DNA of 59,265 bases, filler included, from Dirinaria sp. TL-2023a (lineage: Eukaryota): the NCBI GenBank assembly GCA_051941275.1. It is 3 parts of 3 records of this genome, joined end to end, with 100 filler letters (N's around TTAATTAATTAA, not from the genome) between each part and the next. Parts side by side here need not be neighbours in the genome. Positions count along the whole stretch, not along the records: positions 19,808 to 39,489 come from JAVEBF010000318.1; 2 more parts are not named here. One strand, 5' to 3'. The position numbers were made by a program, and so were the translations under genes. The notes under the pieces are model-generated. The model was not told where the DNA came from. It saw nothing but the letters and a program-made list of their open reading frames with translations, and made no database searches. This document shows, in pieces, positions 18,063 through 43,500 of the stretch; the first letter of the stretch is position 1, and each line of letters starts with the position of its first letter.

Positions 18063-19707
18063 TCGGTCAATGCTTGCGCTTTGTGGCCGATTTTGATTCC
18101 CGTGACGGCTATATTGGTTCACATCGTGAAAACTTATGAGTAAGTTAGGAAATATCGTTTTTCGAAATGGTGATGTATGTATTCGACGGCAACCAGCAAC
18201 CAGCGGGGTGGAGTTCTCGGCGGGCAATGGTTTATGCGATCTACCTTGATGTATCTACTGTAATTCTCGCTCCGTCGCGTTATGATACCCTTGTTGCAAG
18301 ATTCCCCAAGTACTTTAAATAATTTCGAATATATATGAAGATAGCCTTAAAAATGGCCATCGACAGAGAAGAAATATTTCGAATCTGGTCGTCTGTGTGT
18401 GGGTTATTTTGGGGTTCGGGCTACTTGGGAAGAGATTCTTCGTTGGTCTCACGACCTATAATTGTTCTTTAATAAATTTTGACCATGGGTGCTGATGAAC
18501 TGATGGGAAGATCGTGGGAAGGAGGGAAGAAGAATCTATGTGCGCATGCTTCTCGTCACTCATCTAGCCATACTGAGATGCGGATCTGATGAGGATCTTT
18601 TGTGCAGTAGCCGTTCACACCCTACCCTTGCAATGCAGATACTGGTATGCAATTACTGTAGTTATGACGACAATTCAGAATTGCGATCGTTGTCACGAGA
18701 TCTAGATGAATATCACGCATGCGTCACTAACGTAGATAGAATAACCCCACCAACGTCGATAAACTTTTGTCCTGATGTGATATTGAAGCATCCCTTTCTA
18801 TCCCCTTTTCGCAAAATTTTGATATTTGGGTTACGTGACCAATCACATTCCAGGAGCCGACTGAACCCAAAAAGGGCCGGTCTGCGGGCGCGGATGTCGA
18901 GGAATGGCCCGGCCATGCACGAATCAAAGCCTATCGCTTCTCCATCCCGCAATTTAATGCTTGCTAATGCTAGAACATATGAAAGACAATCCCAGCCGTG
19001 CGGTTTGCCTCAACGGCATCAACGGCGGCGCCCCCTGTCCCGAAACTCTCAAGCTGGAGCGAGTAATGCTCCGCAAATAATGGCGAGTACGGCGTATTCT
19101 AGGGGATAGGGAAGTTTTTTCTTTTTCTTTTTCTTTTTCAGGGGGTTCCAGCTTAGGAAACCGCCGCCGATGGTCTGGCCTGGGATCCTTCCATACAAAT
19201 GACCGGGGATCGTCATTAGGACGAAACAGTGATCGGCACTTCACGTGGCGATTAACGAAAGAATGGTTCGGAGTGCGAGGATCGCTTCCATCTCATCTTC
19301 TACTGCATTGATCAGCAGCAGCCACGAGTGAATTCCCTTCTATCGTTAGTCCCTTCACTGCGCGGGTATCTTGTTCGCTGAGAGCCTCGATTTGATACAT
19401 TGGTTTGCTCCCGCCGTGCATGGCGCCACTTGATGTCGTCTTGAACAAACTCGATGCAAGCCTTTGTCGTTCTCACGCTCCTCGAGTAAATATTAATAAT
19501 ACCTACTTACTTACACAGAGGGTATCGTTATTCGCCAAGTGCCACCACCTTCTTGTTCAGCTAATACTGATAATTGCGTAAACAAGACTTGTCAAAAAGT
19601 AAAACCGTAGCACAAGAGGTAGTGTCGGTAGTAGTGTGAGGAGACTTTCCTAGTCCGCAACAGTAGTACGTACGGAGTAGAGAATCTTCCCCCCTTCACC
19701 CTTGGCC

Positions 19708-19807
19708 NNNNNNNNNNNNNNNNNNNNNNNNNNNNNNNNNNNNNNNNNNNNTTAATTAATTAANNNNNNNNNNNNNNNNNNNNNNNNNNNNNNNNNNNNN
19801 NNNNNNN
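19708..19807. other. Artificial assembly gap/spacer
   Basis: Exactly 100 bp of N with central TTAATTAATTAA (stop codons in all six frames). Confidence 0.98.
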
Positions 19808-21782: not shown

Positions 21783-23808
21783 ATGCGTCGCAAGAAGACA
21801 GCTAAAGCAAAGGACATCAATACCTCACTGGGCTTCTTGACAAAACTTCCACTAGAGATTCAATGTACGATCGGTAAAAATGTAAGCTCTCATCACCAAC
21901 TTCTTCTCAACCTAGGACCTCGGTATTCTATATCCAAGATGCTGACGATGATCTTCAGCTTTCTGCACGTTCTGATGTCAACAACCTTAATAGGACATGC
22001 AAATCGTTGCACGCCGCCACGCTTCCGAAATTATATGGCCACCTCGTTTTGCATATCCCAACTTCGAAATATCAGCTCGCAGCCATTGAGCAGCTTGTGG
22101 CTTTACCTTGCACTGGCCTCCAGTACACTTGGAAGCTTGATGTCCTTGCCGCTCATTGCCACGTCGACAGTGGCTTTTTCGCTAACGAGGATCACTCGGC
22201 AGAAACATGGTCAAAGCGGTCTGATCGGACGACGTCAGAGTCTGCCATTGCTGATACTTTTAACATACTTCTTCGTTTAATCATCTCGAAGATACCACGC
22301 GAATCATTGCAGCAGTTTTCGTATGTCAATGGTTGACTTCAGCCGTCCTTTTCTTCTACGTGCCGTCCATTCTGTAGTGTTACATGTTGGATCTCAACCT
22401 GACGTTCTTTGTGCAGATGGCGCCATATGTGTGACATTGATTTTTCAACCCTCGACCTCCTGTGGAAAGACCACCGCAGAAATCTCAGGAGCTTCGAAAT
22501 TAGCTCGCACTCGCTGAGTGCAAGTCTCGAAGCATGGTCCCACCTGCCTCCAAGCTCACTCCACAGAATCGGCGTTAACTCCGTTCGACCGGAAGCCATG
22601 CCCATAGCCAAGGATTCGATTTTATGGCCTATTGGAATCTCTTCTGAATCGTTGAAAGAACTCTCAATTGGTGATGAAGAGACTGTAAGAGACGAGTACG
22701 TTTACGGCTGCATTGAAGACTATACTGCTCCTGGCGGACGGCAACAAACGTTTACAAGTATGCTCGCGCGAGCTATGGCAAAAATTTGCGACCAAAGGAC
22801 CCGTGGCATTGTAAAGCCGTTGCAGTTGAACTCCGTGAGGCTTCTTGGTGTTGACCTCTCAGAAATCTACAGTCACGAGCCTAGACCTTTCTTCGATTTT
22901 AACATGCTGAAAAGTCTATCATTGGAATCCTGTTCCGGTCTAGAGAGGGTTTACCGGTACTGACTATGGAGCACCAGGTGAACTCGCTAGATAGGCTGGG
23001 GAACCTTCGGTCATTTACTATTCGAAGCGAGAGTTCGAATTTTAATTTGCCAGGACGCTTGCAAAGTTTCCTGTGCTCTTTCACTGGACTTAGTACACTC
23101 TTCGTCATGCTCGAGGGATCCTACTCGTACAGAATCGACTTGAAGACGGTCCTGGATGCCCATGGACAAACATTGCAAAAATTGATCTGGGATACCAAGT
23201 CGCAGCTCAGGAGTAATCCAGATCAGGATGTTTCATTTCACTCGCCTTGGCAACATCTAGCCCAGATCGGCGCTGCATGCCCAGATTTAGTGGAGCTGGG
23301 TGTAAGCCTTGATTGGGACGACATTGTCCCATTTCGAGACAGCGTATGTGATATTCAACATTATTGGCTCTATGCATGCCAACAAAAACGCGCTAATTCT
23401 ACCTAGATTACTGATTCCTTCGATCTCATGAAGCTCCGAATTTTGAACATCCGTAATATGCCGGTTGCAGACCGTGTAGACTCTTATACCGTTTCAGAGG
23501 CAATGCTGCAAGGCTTAGCCATTACCATCGTGAGACTGTACATGGGTCGTATCCCGCAAAAATCCAGCAGTCGGCCGTTGTTGAGGATAATTGCCCTTGG
23601 CTCTCTTAGCTACCGAGATCGATATCTTGGAGGTCACCCTTCCGACGACCTAGATCGTTTCTTCCAGCGAAGGAACTACCATGTCGACTATGTGGAAAAC
23701 TATCAGAAGAAGCCGGCGCCCTTGCTTACGCTGACCTCCAAGGGATGCGTATGCAACGACGAGTTTTCTGAGCAGACTTCCGTCCTGGATCCATATTGGC
23801 TCGCATAG
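21783..23808 (+). CDS. F-box-like / RNI-LRR-like protein with an internal frame break at about 22950-22965 (possible pseudogene or sequencing error)
   Basis: F-box-like LTKLPLEIQCTIGKN/LSARSDVNNLNRTCKSLHAATLPKLY after intron 21882-21958. Further introns 22321-22416 and 23344-23406. LRR-like segments LKSLSLESC, LRSFTI, LSTLFV, CPDLVELGV, LRILNIRNMP. TGA at 22961 interrupts the frame. Confidence 0.75.
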
Positions 23809-24538
23809 ATTGTTGAAAAATTTTTACTCCTCCTTGTTGGAGCCTGTTTCACAGATTATGCGTTGGGCCATCGTCACCCAGTTCGGCCAATACCCACCCA
23901 TTTCTACCTTGCACGGCCTGATCATATGCCCCGGCAGCGTGATTTTTCAGAGGTGTGCCAAGTCAACTGGGAGGAATGGCTCGATCGCCATAATTGGCAA
24001 TTTGCATCATCGGTTTCAACGAGGGACTGGTCTAGTCATCAAGACCCGTTGCTAATGTGGTAAACCCTTCAAGTATATCAACTTCACCATGAGAAGTTCA
24101 ACAGGGAAAATCAAGAACGACGGGAAAAAGCGATTGTCCCTTCTCAGTACTTGGTGAAGGAGTAAGCTTACACTTCTGACGTGGCATTGCATGGTATGGA
24201 GGGCTTTAAAGATTCAAACCAGCTCATTGCGACCTTGAGTACAAAGACCCGCAACTCAGCAAAGCCATCACGAAAAATACATCTCCCTGTTTCGAAGATT
24301 TCCTACTGTACAGCTCAATAGTCTGCAAACGTTTTGTAGATATTTAACACCACACAAAACGATCTGATAGCAATCTCACATCAAAGCAACCTTCTCCAGT
24401 AGCTCCTTTCTAATCTCGATCTTTTACAGTGGAATATCATTTCTTATCTCTCTCTACACCATACAGTACAGTACTTTATAGGCGGAACCAATTCGTTGGA
24501 AGTGGGCTATCTGAGATTTATCGTTTTGATGAAGGGAA

Positions 24539-24781
24539 TGCGGAAGGGCGACTGACGCCCTTTGTTCCTGGCTACCTTTTTAGCGCGGTCAATGCTGCTA
24601 GATAGTGTGAATTATTAAGTGGAAGTCGCCCGGGAGATCCACCTAAGATGAATACCCGCACGGGGTCAACTTGGCGCCTAGGGCGCAGCTGCGTAGCCCA
24701 AATGGCAACTACACTACTACAGTCACCTAGAACACGCAGTCTTGGTGTACTGGCCCTCAAGGTATGGCGTCGAGCTCCGTA
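24539..24781 (+). mobile_element. MITE family copy D (degenerate)
   Basis: Shares ordered blocks TAGCGCGGTCAATG, GGAAGTCGCC, CCACC(T/C)AAGAT, CAACTTG..CCTAGG, AGTCACCTAGA, CTTGG(T/C)GTAC and terminal ..CTCCGTA with the copies at 34.0-35.0 kb. Confidence 0.7.
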
Positions 24782-25399
24782 CCCTAGGAGAAGGCACTTG
24801 CCTATGATTAGGCCTCAGTACGGTTCAGTGATTGTGGGCAGGGTCGACTACTTCGAAGTGACTACCCGAGATTAGATGGATTTTAGCACTCGTACAGACT
24901 GCGCCTAACCATCATTGGGCCCTCCCACTAATAGTCAAGGGGTTGATTTTAGTACGGACTACGATACGTTTAGGGCGCACATGGCTCATCATAAGCTCAC
25001 CAATGTACCTTCACTTTGATTCGTTTAGGCGGGTGGGCATTATTACTACTTTACTGAAGAATGAGGGACCCTTGGAAGTTCTGGCAAACGTCAGCAACAC
25101 CATTTGGTGGTGATGTCAGCTGGAGGTCGCTTCTCAGCACATACTACTGGCGGCAGTTTCTAGCGCAGCTGCATTATGGTGACACGTTCAAGTACGGAGT
25201 GCAAAGTGCCTTGTGCACAGACCGCGCCACAGTACAGTGAGGAGTGAACTGTCCTGAGATAACCGCATGCATTGTATATGCACGGTGCCCAAAATTGAGG
25301 CATTGATGCCTTGATATGTCTAACCTCTCGCTTTACTTTGCTCTCTTTCAATTCTTGCCATCGAAGTCTCGCGTTTTCGTACGTTCTTACACTCCCTTC

Positions 25400-26230
25400 T
25401 GCCTCTTCATGCTCAGAGCAACAAGTCTCAGAATGCTACAATAGCGCTTTACTCGAGTAGTCCAACTCCTTACGAATATTCAAGGCGTTGACACATCTAT
25501 GAGAGAAGGGCTTTGAGACTGTCCTGTTCGATGAATCAGCTATGTGAAAATCTATGAAGGGTCTAGGTTAAGGTCAAGATTACCTCTCGATCCAGCAGCG
25601 TCACCTAGACGCACTGGACTGAGCATCCTGTAATGGCGCTTCTGGGCATGAAGGCTTCAAATATGGAGGCTCTGTCCAAAGTTTCTAAAGCGATAAACGA
25701 AACGTTCGTCAATCCAAGGTCTACCTATGTCCTGTTCAGTACCTTGCCAACCACAATTTCGACCCATAGCATCGTCGAGCTTAGCTCTTGATTGGCGCTT
25801 CTTTGATGTTGCTATGTGTTACCGTCCGACGATAGACGTTACGAGAGGTAAAGAGACGCAACTCTTATGGCCTCCACAAATTTCAGTCCTCAAATGTCGC
25901 GCCTGCTTTTCCAGGTTGCAGCCGTGACCCACACCGTGACTCTTATTGTCTTGATTCCTACTTCTCTAAACCTTGATATCCTTCTGACGCGTTCGGGTCG
26001 TGCGTGAGATCTCCGCCGACAGCATTAAAAGATTAGTCAAGGAATCGACATCTTGGGATCGATTTTGAGCGATTGCCAGCCTCGCAAGCTAATTCGGCGT
26101 GTTCGCATTCGAAAGCTTGATGCTCATTGACTCGGGCTCAACGAAGTGGCTTGTATCGGGGTGGTATACTGTGCGTGACTTCGATGTTAGCGCGTTTGGT
26201 CTCTGAAAGTCCCGAACAGCATCACAGCCT
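25400..26230 (-). pseudogene. Probable decayed inverted paralogue of the neighbouring F-box/LRR-like gene
   Basis: Minus strand has CCTAGACCCTTCATAGATTTTCACATAGCTG versus CCTAGACCTTTCTTCGATTTTAACATGCTG at 22880, plus weaker colinear patches (GL..T, RL.I, WK..R, IR.E). No intact ORF; boundaries approximate. Confidence 0.4.
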
Positions 26231-26882
26231 AACTCTGGCAGATTCATACTGACCAAGATTTTGCTGCCGACCCTCGATGCCTCCCACGGTTAATTAGACG
26301 ACAGATGTATGTCTCGGGGTCGGATTCTTGCCGCCGACTGAATGTTACTCGATTTACTTGAGAGCCTATCTCAAGCACCAAAGCACTAATGCACCATGCT
26401 GCCTCGTGGCTTAGTATCCAGATAATCGTAGCTCCACTTCAGAGCATGATCATCTAGACGCTGTTCATGGTAACCAGAAGTGGACAAATCGGAGCTTACA
26501 CTTCAATCTATGATTTCAAGCTTCCAACTAGGATACTGGTCGTGGGGTCGGCTGAAGATGGCTGTCCTTGGAGAGGAAGGCCCCGCTTCGGGCCGCTAAG
26601 GTGAAAGCAATTCCCGAAATACAGCGGCTTTTATCTAATCGTACCTTATGACGCCTTACCTACTCATGCGCAAGCTTCAGCCTTGTCGTGTAAGTATATC
26701 TCACTTTGGGTGAAGGCGAAGAGCCTCTACGTACTTCTTTTGCTGCCTGACACATGATGGACGAAGGTGCTTGTGTCTAAAGTTTCAACCCACCTGTTAT
26801 CTGGAACTTTTTCAGCTGCCTTCAACCCTGCGTAATCAACGGATGGTGGCATTCATGTTTCCCGGAGCACACTTTGCTCTCC

Positions 26883-28593
26883 ATGTCTACTAGTGGCTCG
26901 GGCACTACGTGGCTCACCCTGCACGACGAGAAAAAGCATCAGACAGAAGAGGCCTTCGGCCAAGGCTATAGGGTACCTGGAGATGTCAAGAGCGAAGAGA
27001 CCCTTCGTTCTGCGCTCGAGGCCCTCAGCAGGGAGAGGAGAGATCACAGATCTTCCCGATTGGATGCTAAGATACTACCGTCACTCGAGGCAATCGCAGA
27101 ATTAGCCAGAGCTGTCGATCAATCCATCATCGACCGGCAGCATTTGGCACCAGACGATACATTAGAGGGCCTCGTCTGGTGGATATCATTTGCATTGATA
27201 AAGGTGAGTGGCGCCGTCTCAAATATGCTGCATCGCTTACTGCGTTGTAGAGCGGATGCAGAGCTGGCGCTCAGCTCGTTCCTCTTGTGACATTGGTGAC
27301 TGAGCTCAACAAAAGTGTACCAAAATTCTCCACTGAGAGGGGTCATTTCCGTTTGCGGTTTCCGAGCGAGAAACGAGTTCAGAAGCCTCTACAAGATGTT
27401 TACAACTTGTTCATCGATTCGCATTTGTTCATATTGTCCTACCTGAGGAAGCAAGGCCTCAGTAAGTCGACCTTGGGCAACAGGCCGGAGATGATTGCAC
27501 ACGCTGACCTATTGCAGGCTCTCGGGGAGACCCTACAAAGGAGGAAGCTCTGAGAACGCACATCACTGATACAGCTAAACGGCTCCAGGAGGCAAGAGGT
27601 AGATACGATCTTATGGTAAATCAAGCCGCCGAAGACGAAGAGCGAGCGAAGGCCCACGTAGAGCAGCCGAGTCTGGATGCAGAGCGCAGCTTGCCAGATC
27701 ACCTACATCAAAACTCTACATCGAACCGGGAGGTTCAAGTGGGGTTCGTTTCAAAAAGATTCCTTGGACGTGGATCTTACGGTGAGGTCGACGAGGTTCG
27801 GGAATTGTCGACTGGTGCCTCATACGCCCGGAAGCACATCCATCTGGACGGCGATAGGTCTTCGGACGTAATCGAGAACGAAGTCAAGAATGAGGTCGCT
27901 ATCATGCAGAAACTCCGACATCTGCATATAGCAACAGTTTTGTTTTACGTGAAGGAAGAAAAAGCATACAGCATTTTTATGCTACCAGTTGCCGACTGTG
28001 ATCTTCAACGCTTCCTGACGCGTTGCACCGAGCAAGATTATGCTGATGCTCTAATCAAACAGATTTACCCTTGGTTCGGATGCTTGCTTGATGCGCTAGC
28101 ATATGCACACAAGCTGAGGATTAAACACCAAGACATCAAGCTTTCGAACATTCTTATCAAAAACAATCAGCCGTACCTTTGCGACTTCGGCCTTGCGAAG
28201 GATTTTGCAGAAACGAATACGAGCACTTCCCAGGGTCCCAAGCCAAAAGGCACAATGATCTACCGTGCGCCAGAAGTAGTACCTGGTAGTATTCGTGGCC
28301 GGAAGGCAGACGTATTTGCTTTAGGGTGCGTCTATTCAGAGATGTTAACTGTTACTCAAGGGAAGTCTTTGGAAGACTACCGCGATGCTCGTAAAGAAGC
28401 AGGCTCGACCGCATTCCGTGATTGCCTGCCGAGGGTGAAGATATGGTTACAATCGTTCGAAAGGAATAAGCTGAGCGATCTAATGGTGGACCAGATATTG
28501 AGCATGATCAGGAAAAATTCCGAGGAAAGGCATACCGCTGAGCAGGCTGTTAATTTTTTGAAGCGCGAACCTGCATTTTTTTGCGTCGAGTGA
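26883..28593 (+). CDS. Ser/Thr protein kinase fused to an N-terminal helical domain resembling fungal NACHT/NLR N-terminal domains; 3 exons
   Basis: Introns 27204-27250 and 27462-27517 join three ORF fragments in frame. Kinase motifs LGRGSYGEV, ARK, alphaC Glu (NE), HQDIKLSN, DFG, YRAPE, DVFALG. Confidence 0.88.
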
Positions 28594-28716
28594 GTACGGA
28601 TATCAGAGCATGAATATTGGACTAGCGGGAGGTCGTTCTTGGGGTCTGAGTCTGAGATTCAGGAGTTCGAAGGTGTCGCCATTGCGCTTGACGTTCAGGA
28701 GTTCTTGACCATTTCA

Positions 28717-29838
28717 CTACACAAGCTGCTGTGTTTCCTCGATGTCTTTAGCATACCGGGGAGCGTCTACTTCGTCAGCCCAGGGTATTTTGTGGAGGCA
28801 ACCCAGGTGCTCAATGACACGTGCTGCTGCTTTACATCCGTATCGGACCGCAGCTTCAATGTCCCATTCGCCTTTTTGTTTCTGCTCTATATAGCTCGCT
28901 GCGTAGGCGCCCACGAAGCTATCCCTATAATGATACCTGTATCAGTATTCACTAGTACACATACCTGGATGGCTGAGGGAGTGAATAAAATATTATGGAT
29001 AAGGGGTCACAGACCCTGCACCAGAAGTATCGAGTACCGTGCAATTCTTCTCAGCCTCCACATAGCTAGCCCCCCCTTCGTTGGAATAGTAGGCACCCTT
29101 TTCTCCCAGCGTGATTACAACATTGTTTACGCCTAGGTTGTGAAAGTACTCAGCGATTTGCGACCATCCATTCTCGTTTTCGCTGTCTACTGGCGAGCAG
29201 TCCGACAACAGCGATGCCTCGCTCTCGTTCATGATCAGATGTGATATCATCCGATACAAAGGAGTTAAGAGGAAGAATGCCGGGGAAGGTTTCATCATCA
29301 CCTCGATCTCTGCCCGATTTGCTGTCCGAAGGGCTTGCTCGACTGTGTCCCGTCGGATCTCAAGTTGCGAGATGAGTAAATCGGGCGCTACACCTCCTCC
29401 CAAGCTCTCCGGAGTCACGAATTCCGTCGACTCTAGAGCGTAGGCAGCTCCGGGATATTGCATGATTCGATTGGCTCCAGAGTCTTTCTCCAGGATGATG
29501 TTATTCACGGCAGTTGCTTGGCCCTCTATAACGCGGACGCCATCTACATTCACCCCACAGGATAGCAGGTTATCTTTCATTGGGCCCCCAAATTCATCTG
29601 CGCCGACCGCCCCGACGATGCGCACTCGGACGCCATTTTCATCATCGGCCTGCGGGAGGCCTTTGGGATTCGGGCGTGTAAGGCGGTAGCAGGCAACGGC
29701 CGCACTGGCACCTTTACCGCCAGGCTGCTCGGTGAAGCCAGACGCAACGACAGTCTCACCATCGTCCGGCAGCCGGTCTGTGATGGTAGCCAGGTCTCGC
29801 GTTATACCACCCATCACAGCAATAGTACATGGAGGCAT
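28717..29838 (-). CDS. PfkB-family ribokinase-like sugar kinase; 2 exons
   Basis: GGKGA, VGAVGADEFG, QLE, NESEA and ITLGEKGA motifs. Intron 28925-29014 restores the catalytic DTSGAG/DSFVGA. Confidence 0.9.
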
Positions 29839-31423
29839 TTCCAAGGAGCAGCGACAATTGCAGGACGATGCTGTCTGAGTGGATGGACCACAAGTGACGG
29901 TAAGCTCGAAAGATCAATTCCGAGGCAGCATTCAACGGAATTACAGAGCTTCGCTTTGAGTGAGGGGCAGCCGGCTACGGCCATGATTGGCTTTACAAAG
30001 CAACATCGAAAATGGTGCGCCTACGCTCGACCAATACAAGGAAGGCTGTAAGTGGGCCGCCCGGGCCTGAGATAAGTATCAATCGACATAGCAAGGATCC
30101 TCGGGCTGAAACATGGTTAAGGCACTACGGCACGTCTCGAGCGGTCCCTAATACTTTAGGGGGGTTTATCTGCTAGTAGATATTCCCGTCTTTCGGCATT
30201 CGGGTCGTTAGACTGCAGTCTAGCATGATCTCACCGAAAGCTTCATGACACCCAGCATGCCAAACGGGGCGTAATGATGCAGCAGCTACACAAAGTTTAT
30301 ATTCCTATCGTCCTACTCAACTTCAATTACCGTTGGAGCTTCACAAGAACATCAAAGCGAATGGTCAATCTTCTTCAACTATTGGGAACAAATTACAATT
30401 ATGCACGCTCTTCAGTAGCCACTCAAGAGCCCATGGTGTCTCCACACAGGCATTGATTTATCGTCAAGCTTGTACGGGCCGCTTCCTCATATCGCATCCG
30501 GCAATTCTGCAAGTCTGCAGTGTAGCCTCGTCTCGAACCTGATACCAGAGCATTTGACAGTCAGCCTTGCTCTGAATCATGAATCACTGAGCTGCTAAGG
30601 TATTCTAACCAAATACCGGGGGCTCTCATTGCTGCTGCCTTCCTGCTCTCTCACCTCTCCCTTCCTCCATGCGCCTGCACTCATTGCGTCGCGTTAGTGA
30701 TTCGTCAGGCCGAAAGTGGCCGCAATTTCTCCTACCGTATAAGAGGAAATATATTTTGTCATTGATTGCATAATCTGTTGCTTCAATGCTATCCATGGGA
30801 GGGGCTGGTGGTGGCTGTGCAGTTGGCATGGCTTCGATTTGGTCCGTAACTTGATTTGCGCGACGAAGCCTTTGGGCAGCGCTGGGTGCTAATTACTTGA
30901 TTGAAGTGGGACAATTACCTTAAGCACTGGGAGGTCCAAGGACTTATACCTCGCTTCACTGCAGCCTTGCAGTGGGCTGTACCAGGGCCACGAATGGCGT
31001 GAGATACGGCAGCCGGCATTTACGTGCTTTACAGCACATGCAGACCAGCCTTTCGAGGCCGCATTGAATTAGAAGCTAGAAACAGAAGCTACTTGATGTG
31101 TGGGGCGGGGCGCGATGAAGTCTAGGCTATTTCACAGACTTAGACCGCCAAAGATCCCATACGCATCATGGTGGGACATCTTGGCGATTGCTTTCAGATT
31201 GGTCACATTTGATCCTGCTTTTGATGCCACATGCACAATGATTTACAACACTAATATTATATAACGCTTAAGTGATTCAAGCCTTCCACGCCTATACGGG
31301 GAAGGTGAACAATCATACGTGAAGCGAATTTGCTCTACGTGCTCGGACTCAGTGAGATCTGAGCGATCGAAAGAGCCGCCGAACGCAACCATCTGCAGAA
31401 TAAGGGACACACTCATACTCAAA

Positions 31424-33662
31424 ATGGGCGATCCTCTTTCCATAGTCACGGGGGTCCTTGCAGTAGCCGGAGCAGCAGCTACAACTTGCGAAGGTCTTTA
31501 CAAAATATTGAGACGATCACTTGTAGCGCCGAAGGACCTCGAGCATCATCTTTCTGCAGTACAGGCTTTGCAGTCAACTTTGACTGCTATTGCGGCCCTT
31601 GAAGGAAACGATGCTCCAACCACAACGATCATCACACCACAGTTTAAGACCTGTATGCAGTCATGCATGCTGGATCTACAAGCGATGGAGAGGCTCTTAA
31701 AGTCGTTTCAGATCCAGATTGACGAGGGAAGAGCACGCAGAACTTGGGCCAAGATGCGGTGGTCTTCTGTGGACTATCAACAGAAACTGAAGAGTTACCT
31801 GAATAGGATCGAGTCTTACCACAGGACTTTTTCCTTGGATCTGTTGTTGTTCAATATGTGAGTCTGGAATTGGGATTCGAAAACCAGACCTCGAACGCAT
31901 TGAATAACCGATGAGCTATTAGTCATCTAGGTCTTCATTCCAAAGCTGAAGGTCGAACGCATCAGAACAATTGTCCTTGTGCGTCGGATCTCATTCCAGC
32001 CCCAGCTTGCAGACCTCTAGTTCATGCATACTCTTCAAGTAGCCGTCACGGAGATGATTCTGGGCATGTTTCAGTTCAGAGCAGGTTTCTGACGTACTTT
32101 GAAAGTGACGGTTTGCACCTTCTCCTGTGTCTTGGACCCATCACCGCAGCGAGGGTGCAGGACAACCACACTCTCACCTCCATCACCCCGAAGACTAGCC
32201 ATGGATATGGTGTTTGTTTGGTAACATCATCACCCCTTCACAGACTATTTAGGCTGGAGCTAGCGATGTTCATAAAGACGAATCGGAAAGCACCGAGCAT
32301 AAGGTTTTCCATTCACTGGAATCTGTTCTGGCCGCGCACAGTATCTTGGGAAGCGGAGATTATCAATCTCGTCCTGTGCGGGGACGTCGACGCTGTAAAG
32401 AAAGGATTTTCTACGAGACGTTCAACGCCCTTTGATCAGCTTCCAGACGGCGTAACAATTTTACATGTGTGTTTAGTAGTGTTACTTGGGACTAGCACCA
32501 ACTGACAATGCATTAGCTTGCTGCTTCTAACGGTCACTTTGAATTGGTCAAATTTCTTCTTCGAGAAGGCTCCAGGCCGAATGCTGTGGCCAATTTCGGA
32601 GAGTGAGCGTGCCCTTTCCCAAACTGCGTTTGCTTGTCTCTATTGAACGAGATGAGCAGAACCCCGCTTCATTCAGCCATCGCACTGTCCAAGAATTACG
32701 ATGTTGCCAGACTCCTCCTGGAAAATGGGGCAGATCTGCAGAACCGTAATGTCGAGGGGAAGACACCTTTGCACACGTTCTCGAGCCGTGTCTCGGTGCA
32801 GGTGTTGCGCTGTCATGGATTCCTATTCGACTTTTCGACCTTCGATCGCCGCGGCATGAGTGTACTCCATTATATGGCCTGGTCCAGCAAGACTTCCACG
32901 GATACGTTCAGAGATTATCACAAGCTCAGTAATTTGGATCTGAGGACGGTTGATGCGGAGGGCAGGTCGATGCTCCATTTCGCTGCTCAGAGAGGCAACG
33001 TGCCCGTTATTGAATACATCATCAGTGCCGCTAAGCATTTCAACATAGATCATACCGATTGCAAAGGCAGGACGGCAGTACACTACAGCATTGAAAACAA
33101 GCGCGCCTGTGATACCCTGAAAATACTAGTCTCACACGGAGCTAACATTTGGGTTAAAGACTACAGTGGGCGATCCGTACTGCATCATGCGGCCAGGTTT
33201 GGGAATCTGCCTGCCGTAAAGGCATTATTGACGCACGGGATGACAAACGAATTACGCGCAACAGATAGCTCGGGGATGACCCCTTTGATGATCTCATCTT
33301 ACCATAATGCTTATGCTGTGGTGATGTTCCTTCTGGAGATAGAGGGTTGCCCAAATTTTGAAAAGGAGCAGATAGGGCCAGGTGCGGTTGAGTGTGGCAG
33401 TATGGCTGCCCCATACTCAGATTTCGCGTCTGGAACCTCCACGCTAGTCCCTCAAGGAGTGAAAAATCGTATTCCGATGACATATCGACAATCTCAGGAT
33501 TCGGACTATTGGGAGTGGAAGAATCTATCGCCGATGTCTCGACGTTGCCGGAACCGGCTGAGCAACCACAGTACCTGTTGGAGCGCTATCAAGTTTCTTG
33601 CCATAGCGGGCACTGTGTCGGTCGTGGTTGTGCTATGGTTCAGATCTTTGATCGCGTTCTAG
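31424..33662 (+). CDS. HeLo-like (STAND N-terminal) domain + ankyrin repeats + C-terminal hydrophobic anchor; 4 exons
   Basis: MGDPLSIVTGVLAVAG..APKDL..RTWAKMRW N-terminus. Introns 31858-31922, 32467-32516 and 32603-32659 are all in frame. About 8-9 ankyrin repeats (GVTILH, GETPLH, GKTPLH, GMSVLH, GRSMLH, GRTAVH, GRSVLH, GMTPL); terminal FLAIAGTVSVVVVLWF. Confidence 0.85.
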
Positions 33663-34013
33663 TTCCACTCGCAGATTGCGCAGTTCTTAAATAAGGACGT
33701 GCAGATTAGTTCAAAATTAAGGTAGTATATCAAGTTACTGACTTATTCTGTGGTTTACGGTCCACACTTACCTTCGTGTGTGATTCCTCTGTGATCAGGA
33801 GCAGAGTACGTCAAATCTTGACAGTTGCAAACCTGAGTCACTGATGCTTGCTATATCATGTAGGGAATCGTCATCACGATTAGATGGGAGCACACAGCCA
33901 AGTTCGTCGCCTATGCGATCAGTGCCAAAACGGTACAATATGATACTTGTAGGCAGGACCAACTGCTTCGAAATGATCGCTCGACATTATCGTTTGAATG
34001 ACTGGGCTTGTAA

Positions 34014-34240
34014 TACGGAGAACGAGGAACAACGCCTTTATGTAAGTCCTAGGCTAGCGCGGTCAATGCCCACTAGTGTGATCAATTGAAAGTTGGCGCC
34101 CCCCCGGGGCGGGAGATGACCCAAGCTACCTTAACTTGCCTCCTAGGCTCGACGTGCATTGGGGTAGCGAGGACTTTAAATTTAAGCGTCAAACTCACTT
34201 CACTTAAAGCGCACCTGGCTTATGCTTCGTCGGTGGGCAT
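34014..34240 (+). mobile_element. MITE family copy A (degenerate, right end uncertain)
   Basis: Starts TACGGAG; contains AAGTCCTAGGCTAGCGCGGTCAATGCCCACTAGTGTGATCAATTGAAAGT and AACTTGCCTCCTAGG matching copies B and C. Confidence 0.6.
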
Positions 34241-34460
34241 TATCGGAGACCGACGACATAAGTCCTGGCTAGCGCCATGTACGCCAAGGATGTGTCGTCT
34301 AGGTGACTACCTATTTGCCCTTTAATGAGCACAAATGCCTCCTAGGTAGCAAGTTGGTATGTCCGGGCGATAATCTTGGGTGGTCTCTCAGGCGACTTCC
34401 AGTTGACCATACTAGTGACATTGATCACGTTAGCCAGAACTTATGGTCTCGTCCTCCGTA
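34241..34460 (-). mobile_element. MITE family copy B (220 bp, about 36-bp TIRs, TA ends)
   Basis: Left end TATCGGAGACCGACGACATAAGTCCTGGCTAGCG; reverse complement of the right end TACGGAGGACGAGACCATAAGTTCTGGCTAACG. The body is an inverted copy of 34801-35016. Confidence 0.8.
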
Positions 34461-34800
34461 CGTACTCACTGGAGGTCGTCACACCGCTCGGTAGCAATGG
34501 CAGATGGAGGTCGCTAACGCCTATCCCGAGAATGTGGGCCACCTGGATGCCTCGACGCTTGATTGCGCAGGATGAATATGAGTACCGCGTTTCTGACTCA
34601 GAGCGGATGTGTAGACTGAGCAAACTCTAGGCAATCTGGACCTTGACATAGGTGATCGATAAGTGGCACTATGCTTACTGTTTATTAAGAGTCGTCCATA
34701 CTCACGCAGTCAAATTACAGCACTTCGAAACAATTCCATTACAGACTCAACAACAGACATCCTCTCATCACGATCGAGGAGCGACCTGTTAATTTACATG

Positions 34801-35016
34801 TATGGAGGACGACGTCATTAGTCGTGGCTAGCGCGATCAATGCCACTAATATGTTCAACTGAAAGTCGCTTGGGGGACAACCTAAACATCATCCTGAACT
34901 CGCCAACTTGCTACCAAGGGAACAGCTGCTCTCCGCAAAAGGCTGACTGCATTCAGCTGGACGAATACTCTTGGCGTACATGACGCTAGCCAGGACTTTT
35001 GGCGTCGTCCTGCGTA
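34801..35016 (+). mobile_element. MITE family copy C (216 bp, about 37-bp TIRs, TA ends)
   Basis: Left end TATGGAGGACGACGTCATTAGTCGTGGCTAGCGCGAT; reverse complement of the right end TACGCAGGACGACGCCAAAAGTCCTGGCTAGCGTCAT. No credible coding capacity. Confidence 0.8.
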
Positions 35017-35274
35017 CGGTGAACCGATCGAGCATGAGGCTCCAAATCTCCACCTGTTATGCGATCCAACCAGACCTAATCGTTCTAGCGTGCACAAGAG
35101 CCAGCTGAAGAATTTGTCAGCGAAAACCACAAATGATCTGGGCGCTGTCGGAGATGAAACCAGGCCCCAAGGCTACGGGTATGGAAGCTGAGATGGTAAT
35201 CATTTGCGGAGAAATAGAACTCTCTTTCCAAAAATTTCTCTCTCGCTCCCTTTTTCTACGATCTGTATGGCATA

Positions 35275-36801
35275 ATGGCAATTGCCAGAGACCAAGCGTA
35301 CAGCTCATTGGAAGTTATTCCGCAACAATTCACGCCTTACACGAGTCAAAAAGAAAAATTCGTAACTGCGGATTTAGAAAAGGAGGCTGTTCCGGATGAT
35401 GGCAAGCAGGTTTCTTCCAAGCAGGGCGAAGAGGTCACTCCGGAGAACGGCAAACAGTGTGCACTGAACAGTGATGGGACTGAAAAGATCATAAAGGGAG
35501 ACCTCGATACGCACGAAAACAGCAGCAACCATTTCCCAAGACACCGATCGTGGAAAACCAAGCGGCTACTATTGATTGGAGCTGTGTTTCTGATAGTCAT
35601 TTTGGCAGCAGTGCTCGGCGGAGTGTTGGGAACGCGACATGGAACACGGCATAAGAGTTCTTCGACAGCATCACCAGAGGTCCCATCGAATACGTCAAAC
35701 ACTTCTTCCGCGGTGCCATCCCAGCGTAACATCGCCGCCTTGTCCTTCGCATTGAACTCCGTGAACAACACGCGCCTTTACTTCCAGGACGATGTCGGCC
35801 AGATAATGGAGGCCGGGAATTCTGATACAAACACCACATGGAGCGTGAGGGGAACTGGCATCAATGGCAAGAATGGATCTACCATTGCTGCAGCAGTTTC
35901 ACGCCCAGGTTTTCCTCTGGTAACCTACATGTAGTCGGCATCTATCCATCCGTGCTGATATGTCTCAAGGCTATCAGTGTATTTTACCTGAACGGTAGTG
36001 ACGTCATCCACGACGTCAGCTACACACCCTCGACGGGCTGGACTCCGGGCAGGCTCGCAGATCAGGGGTACACTGCAATGCCTAATGCGAGCTTGTCGGC
36101 CATGTATAACCAATGCAGGCTGTGTGCTAACACCACGATCATTGCTTTTCAAGACAAGAACGGGTTCGTTCAGATCGGCAATCTCACCTCACTTGGCTGG
36201 AATTTGGTGCAATTAGGTCCAGGCCTTGCCCCGCAAATAGGAACCGCACTTGCACTGCAGCCATTTTATCGCAGCGGATTGGAGGATCAGATCAACCTCT
36301 ACTATCAGAAGTCTAACCTTAATATGAGCTTGGCAACCTGGCAACTAGCCGTACCGGGTATTTGTGGTTTGCCGTCATGACGCTTGTTCACAGTTTGCTG
36401 ACTCTCGAACCGTAGTTGACGGCTGGAGACTTTCCGCGCAAATCTATCATGCTATTCCATCCGGGTCACCCATAGCCGCCGCTTCCTCCTATTCCAATGT
36501 CTCCACCGGCTTCGAGACCTGGATTGAGGTCTTGTCACTCTCAGACAGAGGCATCGAAGTCAACACATGGTCGGGAGCCATAAACGCCTGGGCGCAACAA
36601 TATGTACATCCCTCAGTGATGGTGAACTCGACGAACATCAAGGGGGCCTTTGAAGATGTGGCAGTTACTGCCACGGGAAACGCATTCGGTGTACTCAAGC
36701 AACAAGGCCATGCGGATACTATCCAACATTGGCTAGTCGAGGATGACACAGTCAATTGGAACTTGCTCGGAACGGTCGATCTAGGTGGTGTGTGGGGATG
36801 A
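35275..36801 (+). CDS. Type II membrane-anchored fungal fucose-specific-lectin-like beta-propeller protein; 3 exons
   Basis: Cytosolic N-tail, basic patch, then TM LLLIGAVFLIVILAAVLGGVLG and a Ser/Thr stalk. Repeated blades TRLYFQD..G.I..W, GSTIAA, ISVFYLN, IAFQDKNG, GTALAL, INLYYQ, GSPIAA. Introns 35920-35969 and 36358-36415. Confidence 0.8.
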
Positions 36802-37298
36802 GCTGCACCTGAAGGTGCTGAGAGCTCTGACGCTGGGTAAACTCTAATTTCATCAGGCACAGGTATACGACGCGAGAGTCACGCTTTATTAAGCCTCGGG
36901 AATTTCCACAAAGCGAAAGCACGATGCTTGGATATAGCTCGACATGAAGAAAAAGCCGTATATACGTTGATGCCGAAGATCAGCTACTCTTCGCTGATGC
37001 AGGCCACATCTAGACATGACGCACGTGTTCTGAGTCTAAAAGTTCACTCCAGAAATGAGCGCCACATAAGCTTGCTAATTGATCGAATTCACCAATCACG
37101 TGGGGATATTTTATCTTCTGGTGGGTACTAACACGTCTCCTGAAGGCTATAGCCAAGATAACTCCGTTCTGAGTAAGTTACAGCAGGCCCCGATTGCAAT
37201 GCCTCCGCGCAGAGCATACATGAAAGAAACTTGAGCACCCCTTCGTAAGTGAGCTTTCATACTGCTCAACTTGTAACATCTATAGCAAGTATCTGCTT

Positions 37299-38546
37299 TC
37301 ACTCCAACTGCTTCATGACAAATGGTACGTAAGCACCCGTAATACTCACATCTCTCTCCGGGTTGTATTTCTCGAGGCTGTCTAGGGGTCCATATTTTTC
37401 ACAAAGATAAAGCATATCATTATACGCACTGCAGAGCCTCGTTTAGCAGTTTGTCTTACTTTTGACAGGGGATCCTCACATTTGTCTCGAAGCACTTCCT
37501 GGATGTCCCGCAGAGTCATTCAAATACGGATGGATGCTGTAAAGCCGATTGCGGTCGTCCCATTCTTCCACAGGCTCCGATGGCTCGATATGGCGCTGAT
37601 AAAGTCGCATATAAATGGGTGAATTGAAGTAGAACGCCCAGGAGCACCTCCAAGTTCCGAATTCCATTTCATTATGGGCATATGTGGACCCAGGATCGAA
37701 GACGACAGTGTCACCCGTTTCCATGTCGATCCCAACATTTCGTTCCCACAAATCGCCATGTATCAGTGCCGGGGTTATATCCCGGCCATCAGACTGCAGA
37801 GCGCCCAAGAGCCTCGGTATGACCACATCGATAAGTTGCTTGCAAGCGGCGTCGAATTCTACCCAAGGTCCATTGGTCTCATTGTCATATTTGATTACAT
37901 CTTTAAGTTGGTGGGTGAAGGATTCCGCCCAACTCTTCTCCCAGGTTACTGTACGTTCCATTATGCCACATGTGGTCGGAACAGGGAATCCAAACATCCC
38001 ATTTGGCGAGGTTCCGCTGCGATGAAGCTCTGCTATCTGAGATACAAAGTGCAGTGGTTCTGGAGCTGTGGAGAAATCCATGTCATGGAAGTCTCCTAGG
38101 AAGAAGTATGATTGGGACTCGCCATTATGATACTCTTCCCATGCTGCTGGTTTGGGCACCAATCCTGGTACCAGAGCATCGATAGCAGATGCAGAATAAA
38201 ATTCGCCCTCGGCCAAAGCTCGTGCACCCTGCCCAGTCGCACACTGTGTGGTATCAATATTTTATTAACAAGCATTGACTCAACCGGGCGAATGTCGATT
38301 TACCTTCATAAAATATCTCTTGGGACTTCCGTTTGGTAGTCTGACCAAGACTTTCGCAGTCTTCGTCCAGGTAGACACACCATAAGACTCGGCTGAGATA
38401 ACCTTCGTCCCGCTTGGCATGGCTTGCGAGGTTCGTGTTAGTTTTCCGTGGATTTATTATCTGCGGGGATCCATACCCTCAACAACGACCTTGTGGATAG
38501 GGAAGTCTCCCTCGATCCCCAACTCCCAGTCAGACGAATTTGACAT
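37299..38546 (-). CDS. Fructosamine/ribulosamine 3-kinase family protein; 4 exons
   Basis: Introns 38423-38476, 38244-38303 and 37429-37479. Motifs RYFMK, AEGEF, PNGMFGFPVPTTCG, PALIHGDLWERN, VVFDP..YAHNEMEFG, WDDRNRLY. Confidence 0.9.
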
Positions 38547-39489: not shown

Positions 39490-39589
39490 NNNNNNNNNNN
39501 NNNNNNNNNNNNNNNNNNNNNNNNNNNNNNNNNTTAATTAATTAANNNNNNNNNNNNNNNNNNNNNNNNNNNNNNNNNNNNNNNNNNNN
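39490..39589. other. Artificial assembly gap/spacer
   Basis: Exactly 100 bp of N with central TTAATTAATTAA. Confidence 0.98.
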
Positions 39590-40086
39590 GGGCTAGAGTT
39601 GGGAAGGTGAGGGATTTTGGTTTTTTCTATTGTAGACTTGCATTCTTGCTTTGCATCCCTTTTTCTTATCAGCCATTCCACTTGTCCACTATCATTTACT
39701 AGTCCTTTTCAAATGTCTTGTTTTCGAAGATGTTGTGTCTCTTATCTGTCATAGCATCTAACATCATAGCACACAGTATCGCGAAGCTCTGGAACTCGGC
39801 TGCTGGTGGAATATTGCTAAACCCTTCTCACTTTCTCCAAGCCACTATAGAGTCTCTCGAATTAATCTTGAGCCGATGGCTCGTTCACAAGCCTTTCTAA
39901 CAACAAGTAATGCAGTACTGCAAGATTGCGCCCCTATGCTCTGTCGGCAACAACGAAGTGCTGCCGGACTACACCATCGTCTACGGCGAGAACCAAAGAA
40001 GGACTGGGGGCGCCGAAGAGGAGACCTTGCGAGCGAAAATGGTCGAGCAACATTATCAGACGCTGAAGAAGTTAGGGACGAAATGA
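39590..40086 (+). CDS. 3' end of a dynactin p27 (DCTN6)-like left-handed beta-helix protein, truncated by the gap
   Basis: Exon ARVGK (to 39606), intron 39607-39915 (GTGAGG..TTCTAAC..CAG), exon 39916-40086 YCKIAPLCSVGNNEVLPDYTIVYGENQRR..LRAKMVEQHYQTLKKLGTK*. Resembles the C-terminus of fungal dynactin p27 proteins. Confidence 0.7.
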
Positions 40087-40596
40087 AACGGTCTAAGAGA
40101 TGAACCAGTGTTAGGATTGGCATTACACTCCGAAGTTTCTGACGACGATGATGTGCAGCAGCTGCATTGGAAGGTGCAAATGGCACTTCGGTTCGCTGTC
40201 TAACCGACGATGAGACAACATTCAAATGCAGGCTCATGCAGAGGCTCCGAGGGCGATACTGGGACAGCAAAGAGATTCCCAGTGGTCGGTAAGAAACGTC
40301 TTTGACATGATAGCAGGCAGTCATTCGATAAGAGCGGGCTTGGAGAGGCAAAATTGGCTACAATAGCGGCCATCTTTGAGAAGACGGTTGGAACCACATA
40401 GCACAGATTTGGTATTACAATATCACATTCGTTGATCGTGGTTTCTGAGACCGATGCTCGGTCGCACAATTGCAAATTTTCCCAAGCAAGCGCCTTGCTG
40501 CTCGACTTTGAAAACAAAACCTGGAGATAACGCATTATCCCCAGAAACCCTCCCAAATCAAGACAATCCCGTTTCCATCTGGGCATTCCACATATA

Positions 40597-43500
40597 TCAA
40601 GGTCCTCCGCGACCACCTCTGATCCTTTTCCCGTTCCCTCCTCCATCTCCGTGCTGTCCCTCCTGTGCTTCGTCTCGAGGCCGCTTGTTTCCTGGCACAA
40701 ATTGTCTCGCGGATGCGTTCAAGCTGGCGCTCGTTGGACTAGCGCGTCCTTGTGGCTGCCCTTGTGGCTGCCCTTGTGTTTGCTCTTGTGTCCGGGTAGT
40801 ATCGATGGACTGACCACCACCCCAACCTTGACCCCTGCCTCTGGCATTCCCTCTACCACGGATCGAGCCGCCTCTGGCAATTGGCAAACCCGATTGCTGC
40901 AAACTTCGTGCCGCTGCTGGGCCTGCGCCTTGACTGAAAGGGTTATTCTGACCTGATGCTGCTGGCTTTGGAGGTAGGCCGCCCGCAGGCTGCGAAGAAG
41001 GCTGTCGCTGCGGCTGGCTGGTCCCATTTATGGGATTTGTGTTTTGCTGCCCATCAGCAACCGGCTGAGGTAATGCGACCGACGCTTGAGGATTATTAGA
41101 GGCTGGTCGCTGCGGTTGGCTTTGCGGAAGTGTGGCATTCGCTTGAGGCGGAAGAGGTGCTGGTTGTTGATCGCTAGATGTACTATTGTGGGATTGGGTT
41201 TGGATATTCCGAGGGACGCTGGGTTGCCCAAAAGAACCTGCTGCTGCTGCGTTGGGCGATTGGGTTTGACCGCTCTGGGCAAAATTGCTTGGGAGACTGA
41301 AACCGCTGGGCTGACCAAAGGTGCTCGGTCTTCCAAAGCTACTCGGCTGCCCAAACGACGAGACAGGGGCCTTCGGAACTTGGCTTTGCGAATCAGCTAC
41401 AGGAGCTGATACCTGCTCAGAGGTAGAAGAAGCTGCCGCCGGTTTCTGGACCACAGGACTGGCAACATTTGCTGACGGTGGCGCTACTGCAACCTCGGCC
41501 TTTGCGTTCTTCGCAACATCCCAGACTTCAATTACCGGCCTCTGAGGCGTTTCGTTGGCTGCTGTTTGTATGACTGCTAATTTGGCTTGCGCTGCCTTTG
41601 CTTTGTTCTCCGACATACTGACCTTGAGCTGGTTACGCTTCTGCTCCATCGCTACAGCATGGTCTTTCATGGTGTTAGCTTTGCTTTGAGTCTCCGCAAG
41701 CTTCTCGGCTAAGTCCTTCTCATGTTCCTCTCGAAGCTGGGCAGACAGAATCTCCTTGGCTTTGTCGACTTGCGTTGTAACATTCTTCCTCAAAACAACT
41801 CTGACCACATTGTTTGATCTGATCAAGTCCTGGGCTTCGGCATCTGAAATATCCGTAAGAGCTCTAGGAGCTTGAGTATCTGTACTTGAAGCTAGATTTG
41901 TAGTTTCAGATTGAGATTGTGGATGGTCAGAGGCCCATTTCTCTTTGAATTGGGCGAACCTGGACTCTTCTTGCTTCTTCAATTCGTCGAGTTCATCATG
42001 ATGCCGCGTTCTCAACTTCTCTAGTTCTTGTACGTGATCAGACTTGAGCTTCTCGATCTCCTGCTCATGCTCCACTGCGATGCTCTGCCTATACTTCTCT
42101 TTGGCATCCGCTAGCTTGTTCGTCAATTGGGTTCGCATGGTTTCTGACCTCTTCTTGAAGGTTTCTTCAATCTGCGCAAGCCGATCATTGTGTCTTGCTT
42201 CGAGTTCAGCGCGGATTTCCTCAACTCGTTCTGTAAGCTGTTCTGTGACTGACTTTCCACCTTCTTCGGTCGTCCTTTTATCCAGGGACTCGGACGCAGA
42301 TGCTGTCGCTCGAAGGGCTTCAGCATCTTGTTGAGCCTGCACTAGATCTCGCCTTAATCTTTCTAGGTCGGCTTCATGAGCGGTAGAAGCTAACGTGGAC
42401 TGTTCTTGTTGTTGATTCCGCAAGTCACCAAGTGAGGTATTCAAGCCGTCAATTATCTGCTGGCTGTGGCTCTAGTGAAGACTGTCAGCAAGAATAGAAT
42501 GGCGACTTTCGACGAGACACTCACAGATTGAGCTTCAAGCTCAGCGACCCTTGACTCAGCTGAAACGAGTTGCTCTTGAAAAGCCAGCGATCGGGAAGAT
42601 TCTTCACTAAGCTTGGTTTCAGACGTCAAGAGCTTGTCCTGAAGAGCCTGAACATCGGCGGTGTTATGTTTGGAGCCTGCCTCGTCATCAACCTGCCCTT
42701 CCTCAACCTCGGCCTGCGCGTCATTGTTGGTCGAATTTGCCTCAGCTAGTGCTTTCTCGGCTTTTGCAGCATTGAGTTCCTGTTGTGCATTAGACAGCTG
42801 CTGTTCGATATCCTGTTTCTCCTTCAAAGCAGCTTGCAGCATTGCGTCTTTCTCCTTTACTTGGTCAGAGAGCATTTTCGATCGCGCTTTGAACTGCTCT
42901 GTGAGTTTCGACCTAAGCTCCGCAACACGTTCATCGCCTTGTTTCCGAGCGTTCGCTGAGAGACTATCGTATTCTTCCTGCACGCTGGCTTTGGAGGACA
43001 CCAATTCGTCCCGCTCCGTCTCTAGCATTTGTAGCCTGGTCTTCAAAGCATCCATTTCGGCAGGATCTATCCGATCGTATTTTTGAAGGATATCCTGGGT
43101 CCGTTGTTGCCACCTCTCTCGATCTTCCCTCAATAGATTTGCCTCTCCAGCTTGAGTCTCTAACTGGTTTTTCAATTCCTTGACTTCCGCTTCTAGGGGT
43201 CCGACCTGAGCTTGAAGCTCATCGAATTGTTGAGACTTGAGGGTCAAAGAAGCTTGCGCTTGTCGAGCCTCATGGCGCAGGGTGACATTGCTTTCACGGA
43301 AAGTGCTAAGCTCATTGATAGTCTCCATCAGCTTGTTGTGGTTGAGCGACGTGCGCTCACTATCCTGCTCCAACCGGCGTTGCTGGTTCAGGCGTAATCG
43401 AGTCTCGTCCAGTTGCGACTGAGTGTAATCCAGCTGCTGCTTTAATCGCTTGCCTTCGGTTTCTGATAATGAGTACTGGACTTCAATGATCTCCTTCTCT

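Follow-up and report, generated by a model that had tools for sequence, protein, structure and literature searches.

We analysed a window of 59,265 bases of DNA from Dirinaria sp. TL-2023a (GCA_051941275.1), concentrating on positions 21783..38546, for which an earlier reading (the original prediction) had proposed a fungal non-self recognition island with receptor-like parts split over separate genes. Protein matches place the organism among lichen-forming ascomycetes. Three contigs make up the window, with N-TTAATTAATTAA-N linkers between them; these artificial linkers, at 19708..19807 and 39490..39589, bound on its left and right ends the contig that wholly contains the region (G000:C318, 19,682 bases; the assembly totals 27.7 Mb in 3,105 contigs). 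Inside the region we modelled six genes, four on the plus strand and two on the minus strand, five of them with Pfam support. Its conserved core is a kinase gene that converges on a PfkB/ribokinase paralogue, followed by a gene for a HeLo-like–ankyrin–transmembrane protein (hereafter the ankyrin gene). Gene models and Pfam scans confirmed three of the predicted genes, namely the kinase with a helical head, the ankyrin gene and a membrane-anchored lectin-like gene, and these three do share the plus strand; the predicted list omitted, however, two intact minus-strand enzyme genes, the ribokinase paralogue and a fructosamine kinase. Expression evidence came from three RNA runs of one sample of a related lichen, which contain only 12–14% of the sampled words. 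Contigs from these runs covered all three core genes, the ankyrin gene in parts, and their joints fitted the two introns of the kinase gene, the single one of the ribokinase gene, the two of the lectin gene and the last one of the fructosamine-kinase gene.

The kinase gene (26883..28593, plus strand; exons 26883-27203, 27251-27461 and 27518-28593) encodes a Ser/Thr kinase of 535 amino acids with an all-helical head of ~225 amino acids. Its catalytic domain matched PF00069 (E = 3.4e-42) with motifs intact (Gly loop at 261, K283, E303, HQD383 and DFG400), and the K, E, D and DFG motifs are invariant or near-invariant across 81 relatives, so the protein is not a pseudokinase. Its one departure is L386, where 77 of the 81 relatives carry Pro. 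The head was predicted to be all-helical in a confident model (predicted local distance difference test score, pLDDT, 85.5). In the ESM Atlas, the head of the Lasallia orthologue lay near DUF7708/Goodbye/NACHT_N clusters (score 0.93; 209 of 256 features in common), and its ten best family-bearing matches all fell within one clan; a query with kinase exon 1 alone gave scores below 0.8 throughout. These language-model features make the head a probable, as yet unproven, member of the Goodbye/DUF7708 type. Fold comparison spoke neither for nor against an MLKL-type bundle, as the isolated head returned a designed helical repeat as its best match among 48,161 chains (Z = 6.9) and no Foldseek match at E ≤ 0.001; the full-length model matched kinases only. 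Two kinase relatives (P0229 and P0237) carry a subtilase (Peptidase_S8) piece ahead of the kinase domain; fungal gasdermins are activated by proteases of this class.

The ribokinase paralogue (28717..29838, minus strand; exons 29838-29015 and 28924-28717; 343 amino acids) matched PF00294 (E = 1.3e-32), with ribokinases as its best PDB matches, and its intron is supported by an RNA joint of the relative at 28923/29014. It lies tail-to-tail with the kinase gene, the two stops being 123 bases apart. RNA contigs of the relative cross 28593-28717, starting in the last kinase exon and continuing into the spliced 3′ part of the ribokinase gene, which suggests, as far as RNA contigs can, that the convergent 3′ ends overlap. 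Spliced models retain the GAGD catalytic motif and most pocket residues, among them the equivalents of E. coli Asp16, Gly42, Lys43 and Glu143. The position of E. coli Asn14, a residue described as contacting ribose (PMC9604405), is Thr in the window and, in the 46 ribokinases paired with a kinase (see below), most commonly Val (31), Thr (8) or Met (2). Asn46, present in 40 of these 46, is Ser in the window copy, which lacks the full ribose-binding set to which Asn14 and Asn46 belong. A second copy on contig C104, 41% identical and canonical-looking, retains Asn at the Asn14 position. The linked ribokinases form a clade separate from the C104 copy (support 99/97), and a non-lichen dothideomycete among the named relatives falls inside this clade. 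E. coli grown with 2-deoxyribose is reported to have acquired changes at Asn14 (PMC6452873). The PfkB fold, the GAGD motif and the four retained residues are shared with RbsK/RBK1 and DeoK; in contrast to RbsK/RBK1, Asn14 is replaced by Val, Thr or Met throughout the linked clade, and the gene is a second copy besides a canonical one. DeoK carries a hydrophobic residue at the Asn14 site. A shift of substrate away from ribose in the linked clade is likely but not certain.

The ankyrin gene (31424..33662, plus strand; exons 31424-31857, 31923-32466, 32517-32602 and 32660-33662) encodes 688 amino acids comprising a HeLo-like head (PF17111, 35.9 bits against a cut-off of 27.2), an unannotated linker, an ankyrin array (Ank_2, E = 5.7e-35) and a C-terminus formed by a hydrophobic segment at 664-682. 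Residues 4-22 make up a hydrophobic N-terminal helix, with a mean hydropathy (1.63) only just above the threshold of 1.6; the helix is also found in the Bacidia protein P0058, and the protein aligns over its full length with P0058 and with Endocarpon P0001. The linker (31990-32300, plus strand) is without a Pfam match, yet its conservation extends over a fungal family that comprises at least 86 clusters (at 50% identity); it is probably an unnamed domain. At another locus (L004, G000:C269:18056-19975), reading by eye placed a HeLo-like/SesA-type head before a G-alpha-like domain.

We then assessed whether these genes travel together. Searches gave 194 kinase relatives at E ≤ 0.001 and 161 ribokinase relatives, and the best 120 of each were used; two relatives were counted as linked when they came from equally long longest contigs. 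By this proxy, 46 of the 120 listed kinase relatives paired with a listed ribokinase relative, against a mean of 0.38 and a maximum of 3 in a shifted-size control. Locus tags of the two genes are adjacent in Pyrenodesmia sp. 2 (5613/5614), Pyrenodesmia sp. 3 (8111/8112) and Loekoesia (4248/4249). On one 18,142-base contig of Endocarpon pusillum, the top-ranking relative of the window's ankyrin protein (GJ744_005963) lies next to a ribokinase (005964), with a kinase at 005966; full-length identities to the window are 50% for the ankyrin gene, 62% for the kinase and 60% for the ribokinase. In Bacidia, an ankyrin gene (KY384_004778) lies beside a ribokinase (004779). Among 80 metagenome loci, four proved to be true members of the kinase family (identity 41–52%), and all four carried the ribokinase tail-to-tail; two of the four are near-identical, and only two have long flanks (~10 kb each side). 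The outer neighbours differ: L026 has anthranilate synthase and a cellulase there, L027 a FAN1 nuclease and a cyclic phosphodiesterase. Across the window and the 46 kinase–ribokinase pairs, identity matrices were correlated (Mantel rho 0.70), which shows co-inheritance, not co-evolution.

A first search with the ankyrin protein was swamped by long repeat proteins, and only 2 of the 120 matches listed were full-length relatives; a search with exon 2 gave 86 relatives, of which 30 clusters were looked up. By proxy, 11 of the 30 paired with a kinase or ribokinase relative and 5 with both; on contigs of at least 8 kb, 9 of 14 paired (control mean 0.3, maximum 3). Homologues of the kinase and the ankyrin gene, whose co-occurrence in other genomes the original prediction had set as a check, are linked in Endocarpon pusillum and, again by proxy, in a further 8 of the 30 clusters. 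The prediction's refuting condition, a complete lack of co-localisation among homologues, therefore did not hold for these two genes. Across the five three-way contigs, identity to the window was 32–47% for the ankyrin-gene stretch, 55–83% for the kinase and 50–74% for the ribokinase, a gap that is overstated because one variable ankyrin-gene exon is set against whole catalytic domains. In L025 and L026, which stand for one lineage, a gene encoding a HeLo domain (PF14479, E = 2.7e-23) and a kinase-like domain lies beyond the ribokinase instead. Its product does not resemble the ankyrin protein in sequence and is a second cell-death-type head in the third-gene slot. The copy adjoining the pair in L026 (13832-15517) reads as HeLo plus kinase-like/DUF7580. 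Neither this gene nor an ankyrin gene was found by the pair in L027.

Taken together, linkage, domain content, intact catalytic motifs, an altered sugar pocket and expression in a relative lead us to read the kinase, the ribokinase paralogue and the ankyrin gene as a conserved non-self or damage-response microcluster lacking a nucleotide-oligomerization domain (NOD) and probably ending in regulated cell death, a tentative reading to which we give a little less than an even chance. Under this reading, the signal would enter through the ribokinase paralogue, which would either sense or phosphorylate a non-ribose pentose, 2-deoxyribose being a candidate, or act as a bait watched by the kinase. 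That input would switch on the kinase, the helical head of which is probably of a kind carried by fungal NOD-like receptors (NLRs). The kinase would in turn act on the membrane-anchored ankyrin protein and release the HeLo-like helix at its N-terminus, and this helix would damage the membrane. The third gene would be the exchangeable, faster-changing part with HeLo-type output. A sharper version, in which the re-tuned ribokinase detects or converts a pentose from damaged or foreign cells, its product or the enzyme in closed form activates the Goodbye-headed kinase, and the kinase sets off an interchangeable HeLo-type executioner in a NOD-less pathway, seems to us unlikely in its entirety.

Such a microcluster would have several counterparts. 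Fungal cell-death pathways are often described as two- or three-gene clusters, and HeLo-like domains also occur fused to kinases (PMC12881547, PMC10197012). Like het-S/nwd2 and the gasdermin–protease pairs covered by the same sources, the present genes would combine a putative sensor with a membrane-targeting HeLo-type protein; they differ in having no NACHT gene on the contig, no protease or gasdermin, a sugar kinase as the tightest partner, and a HeLo-like protein that ends in ankyrins and a hydrophobic segment. With MLKL/RIPK3 necroptosis and the fungal HeLo-like–kinase fusions they probably share, by features, a head of the HeLo/Goodbye/MLKL superfamily on a kinase, Goodbye-like domains being described as having a four-helix core in common with HeLo and MLKL (PMC9815663). 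In contrast to those systems, the present kinase keeps its catalytic motifs, its head is probably of the Goodbye type, for which killing activity is unproven, and no match to a solved structure was established. Tripartite fungal NLRs, as outlined in PMC4986451, join a Goodbye-like or HeLo-like head to NACHT and ankyrin repeats; head and repeat modules are common to both, whereas here each module has a gene of its own and the locus lacks a NOD. The ankyrin gene has the N-terminal effector domain (PF17111) and C-terminal ankyrin repeats of a fungal NLR and no NACHT central domain. ALPK1, the animal ADP-heptose-sensing kinase, is a helical-headed kinase switched on by a sugar metabolite; its kinase fold is different, and we offer it as an analogy, claiming no homology.

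The absence of a local NACHT P-loop gene, which the original prediction had pointed out, held up: none of the genome's 32 NACHT matches, 27 of them above cut-off, lies on this contig, and Pfam scans of the region's open reading frames (ORFs) found no P-loop family, although no genome-wide search for NB-ARC was made. A NACHT protein encoded elsewhere in the genome could act in trans.

Several observations weigh against the microcluster reading. Its functional steps are inferred from sequence, and much of the linkage was scored by a proxy, not read from DNA. Among the matches listed, no paired ribokinase was found for 74 of the 120 kinase relatives, including those of Lasallia, Lobaria, Gyalolechia and Xylographa and Bacidia KY384_006821, and five named records of the ribokinase clade had no paired kinase among the matches listed. 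Likewise, 19 of the 30 ankyrin-gene clusters were unpaired with the kinase and ribokinase matches listed, although many of the contigs compared are short, and two ankyrin-gene paralogues of the same genome (L002 and L003; contigs C1823 and C618), with the same HeLo-like/linker/ankyrin layout and ankyrin parts 34–38% identical, lie on contigs without a kinase or ribokinase of these families. The head also eluded direct detection: of the profile checks laid out in the original prediction, those for PF17111 and PF07938 scored above cut-off and that for ankyrin repeats matched Ank_2, whereas no F-box match on exon pieces passed the cut-off and none of 11 kinase-family heads matched Goodbye/DUF7708 or NACHT_N in Pfam. 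Our own head profile, run against the 14,001 ORFs of the loci examined, recovered family members only and none of 12 DUF7708 loci, and profile–profile alignment (hhalign) with the genome's DUF7708 segments, although in register with the DUF7708 core, was weak (E = 0.099, without a shuffle control). Killing activity of Goodbye-like domains is itself described as unproven (PMC9815663), and the best-known protein combining PF17111 with ankyrin repeats, Monascus PigL, is given no known function in its description (PMC8241920). The likeness to PigL is one of domain description, and PigL differs in sitting in a pigment cluster. As to the sugar pocket, an Asn-to-Ala change at the Asn14 site of the Arabidopsis enzyme is reported to reduce ribose activity little (PMC9604405). 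Finally, the window ribokinase differs at ten positions that are near-invariant in its family, Asn46 among them, and may therefore be decaying under relaxed selection.

We next weighed other explanations for the linkage. The kinase might regulate a specialised pentose kinase for photobiont-derived or salvage sugars within a metabolic or symbiotic regulon, the ankyrin protein being a membrane scaffold and no cell death taking place. All eight named kinase relatives among the 120 listed are lichen-forming fungi, the catalytic motif and most pocket residues of the ribokinase have been retained, and a fructosamine kinase lies nearby. However, the third slot holds a HeLo-type head in two unrelated forms, the linked ribokinase clade reaches the non-lichen dothideomycete, and no transporter or pathway enzyme accompanied the pair in the four metagenome loci read; we consider such a regulon possible but unlikely.

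Alternatively, the two convergent genes could be a selfish poison–antidote pair, in which a toxic helical-head kinase is neutralised by the ribokinase-like protein, or the reverse, so that linkage is enforced and the block spreads between lineages. Strict tail-to-tail pairing amid changing surroundings fits this idea, as does the ribokinase tree, which groups Endocarpon with the window's clade (97/95) and apart from Teloschistales. This placement is compatible with transfer, but hidden paralogy fits it equally well; the kinase tree lacks resolution at the Endocarpon node. Several named genomes, moreover, have only one of the two genes among the matches listed. Captain-type recombinases are present in the genome, the Starship captain family (DUF3435) giving 8 matches on 5 other contigs, but none lies on C318, which is far shorter than a typical element. 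On balance, a poison–antidote pair appears rather improbable.

Linkage without shared function would mean that chance or overlapping 3′ ends have preserved an old neighbourhood and that passengers have gathered in a repeat-bearing region. It would account for the close stops and for the RNA contigs that cross both 3′ ends, and the Mantel correlation is expected from shared descent alone. It accounts less well for a pair kept down to 41% identity between outer flanks that are wholly different, for a third gene also kept across two fungal classes, and for linked ribokinases that form a distinct clade with its own pocket, and we regard it as quite improbable.

The full circuit of the original prediction, in which a surface lectin receptor, the kinase, the HeLo-like executor and F-box turnover act together, is highly improbable: its four genes do share one strand of one contig, and fucose-type lectins have been proposed as partner-recognition factors in Peltigera (bioRxiv 10.64898/2026.06.16.732702), but neither the lectin nor the F-box-like gene was found in the four kinase-family loci of the metagenome (two of them long-flanked), the F-box-like gene is broken, the cytoplasmic part of the lectin-like protein has no recognised signalling domain in Pfam scans, and the tightest partner of the kinase is left out. 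What survives of it is the NOD-less unit, made plausible by the linkage of the kinase to the HeLo-like–ankyrin gene; its lectin-receptor and F-box steps found no support in the loci examined.

As regards novelty, two- and three-gene cell-death clusters and HeLo–kinase fusions are known, and the ribokinase partner would be new as far as the open-access literature goes. In that literature we found no description of a kinase–ribokinase–ankyrin cluster, of a ribokinase partner in fungal cell death or of a Starship combined with a ribokinase, and in work on heterokaryon incompatibility ribokinase appeared only as a quantitative PCR marker. A candidate link between PfkB and anti-phage defence was set aside; judged by abstracts, it concerns a similarly named module with a Ser/Thr kinase. 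Which signals activate fungal cell-death sensors is named as an open question in PMC12881547, as is the function of Goodbye-like domains in PMC9815663; by linking an enzyme that can be assayed, the sugar kinase, with a HeLo-type protein and a Goodbye-like kinase, the cluster offers a direct handle on both. If the metabolite-triggered version were true, a sugar kinase would for the first time be known to act as a sensor in fungal immunity, and Goodbye-like domains would gain a testable role in lichen symbiosis. Even if the genes are metabolic, they form an undescribed unit that recurs across lichen-forming fungi.

The three other genes of the region and its transposable elements look like local passengers. 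None of the four metagenome loci, two of them long-flanked, yielded the lectin, the F-box-like or the fructosamine-kinase gene, although no dedicated homologue search was made. Next to the core, the fungal-lectin-like membrane protein (35275..36801, plus strand; 472 amino acids) matched PF07938 on one exon (33.3 bits against a cut-off of 25.3) and resembles a type II membrane protein, with a hydrophobic segment at 99-117, a fucose-lectin-like propeller and 13 N-glycosylation sequons; its alignment with a solved lectin was weak (E = 0.28). Lectin-family matches occur at three places in the genome. The fructosamine-kinase-family gene (37300..38546, minus strand; model start 38546, end ~37330; PF03881) has its last intron set by an RNA joint at 37428/37480, and its family gave nine matches on seven contigs of the genome.

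The predicted F-box/LRR-like gene (21783..23808, plus strand) is a probable pseudogene or assembly error, being broken near 22950-22978 by a frame change over an apparent 29-base intron remnant. Its exon pieces had no Pfam F-box or LRR match above cut-off, leaving it the one gene of the six without Pfam support; by eye, a stretch resembling an F-box motif stands at its N-terminus, interrupted by intron 1. The gene is single-copy in the genome and is almost without cover in the RNA contigs of the relative, a lack that proves nothing.

The miniature inverted-repeat transposable elements (MITEs) of the original prediction are borne out. A MITE-like element of ~218 bp with imperfect terminal inverted repeats is present in the region as three full copies and a fragment, and is dispersed through the genome (77 match rows on both strands). 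One copy lies at 34244..34461, a second, inverted relative to it and 74% alike, at 34800..35017, and an older, more diverged one at 24581..24783 (66–73% to the others).

That the region stands apart as an island did not hold. The joined contigs, of 19,707, 19,682 and 19,676 bases, are apparently sorted by size and are therefore not genomic neighbours, so that a contrast between the region and its flanks is meaningless and sequence past 39489 is not represented; an island defined by such contrast was accordingly ruled out. Nor is C318 a compositional island, as its GC content of 0.49 is close to the values of the two other contigs (0.50 and 0.49) and gene models span 48% of it; its repeat-induced point mutation (RIP) indices are also like theirs.

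Long ORFs were not found at 23810-26880 or 29840-31430. Two stretches in which no ORF exceeds ~90 codons, 25265-25820 and 30454-30919, are nevertheless covered by spliced RNA contigs of the relative, on the minus strand; the RNA at 30454-30919 may be non-coding or may represent an extended 5′ leader of the ribokinase gene. At the left contig end, 19990-20640 (minus strand) holds a gene for a MARVEL-like membrane protein (PF01284, E = 9.3e-05, below cut-off) whose intron coincides with an RNA joint in the relative. The two other contigs (1-19707 and 39590-59265) have an ordinary housekeeping look by eye, with genes that we take to encode TBC and DENN proteins, a short-chain dehydrogenase, a TPR/Mlp1 nucleoporin, TFIIE-beta, COQ3, mitochondrial PheRS and GrpE.

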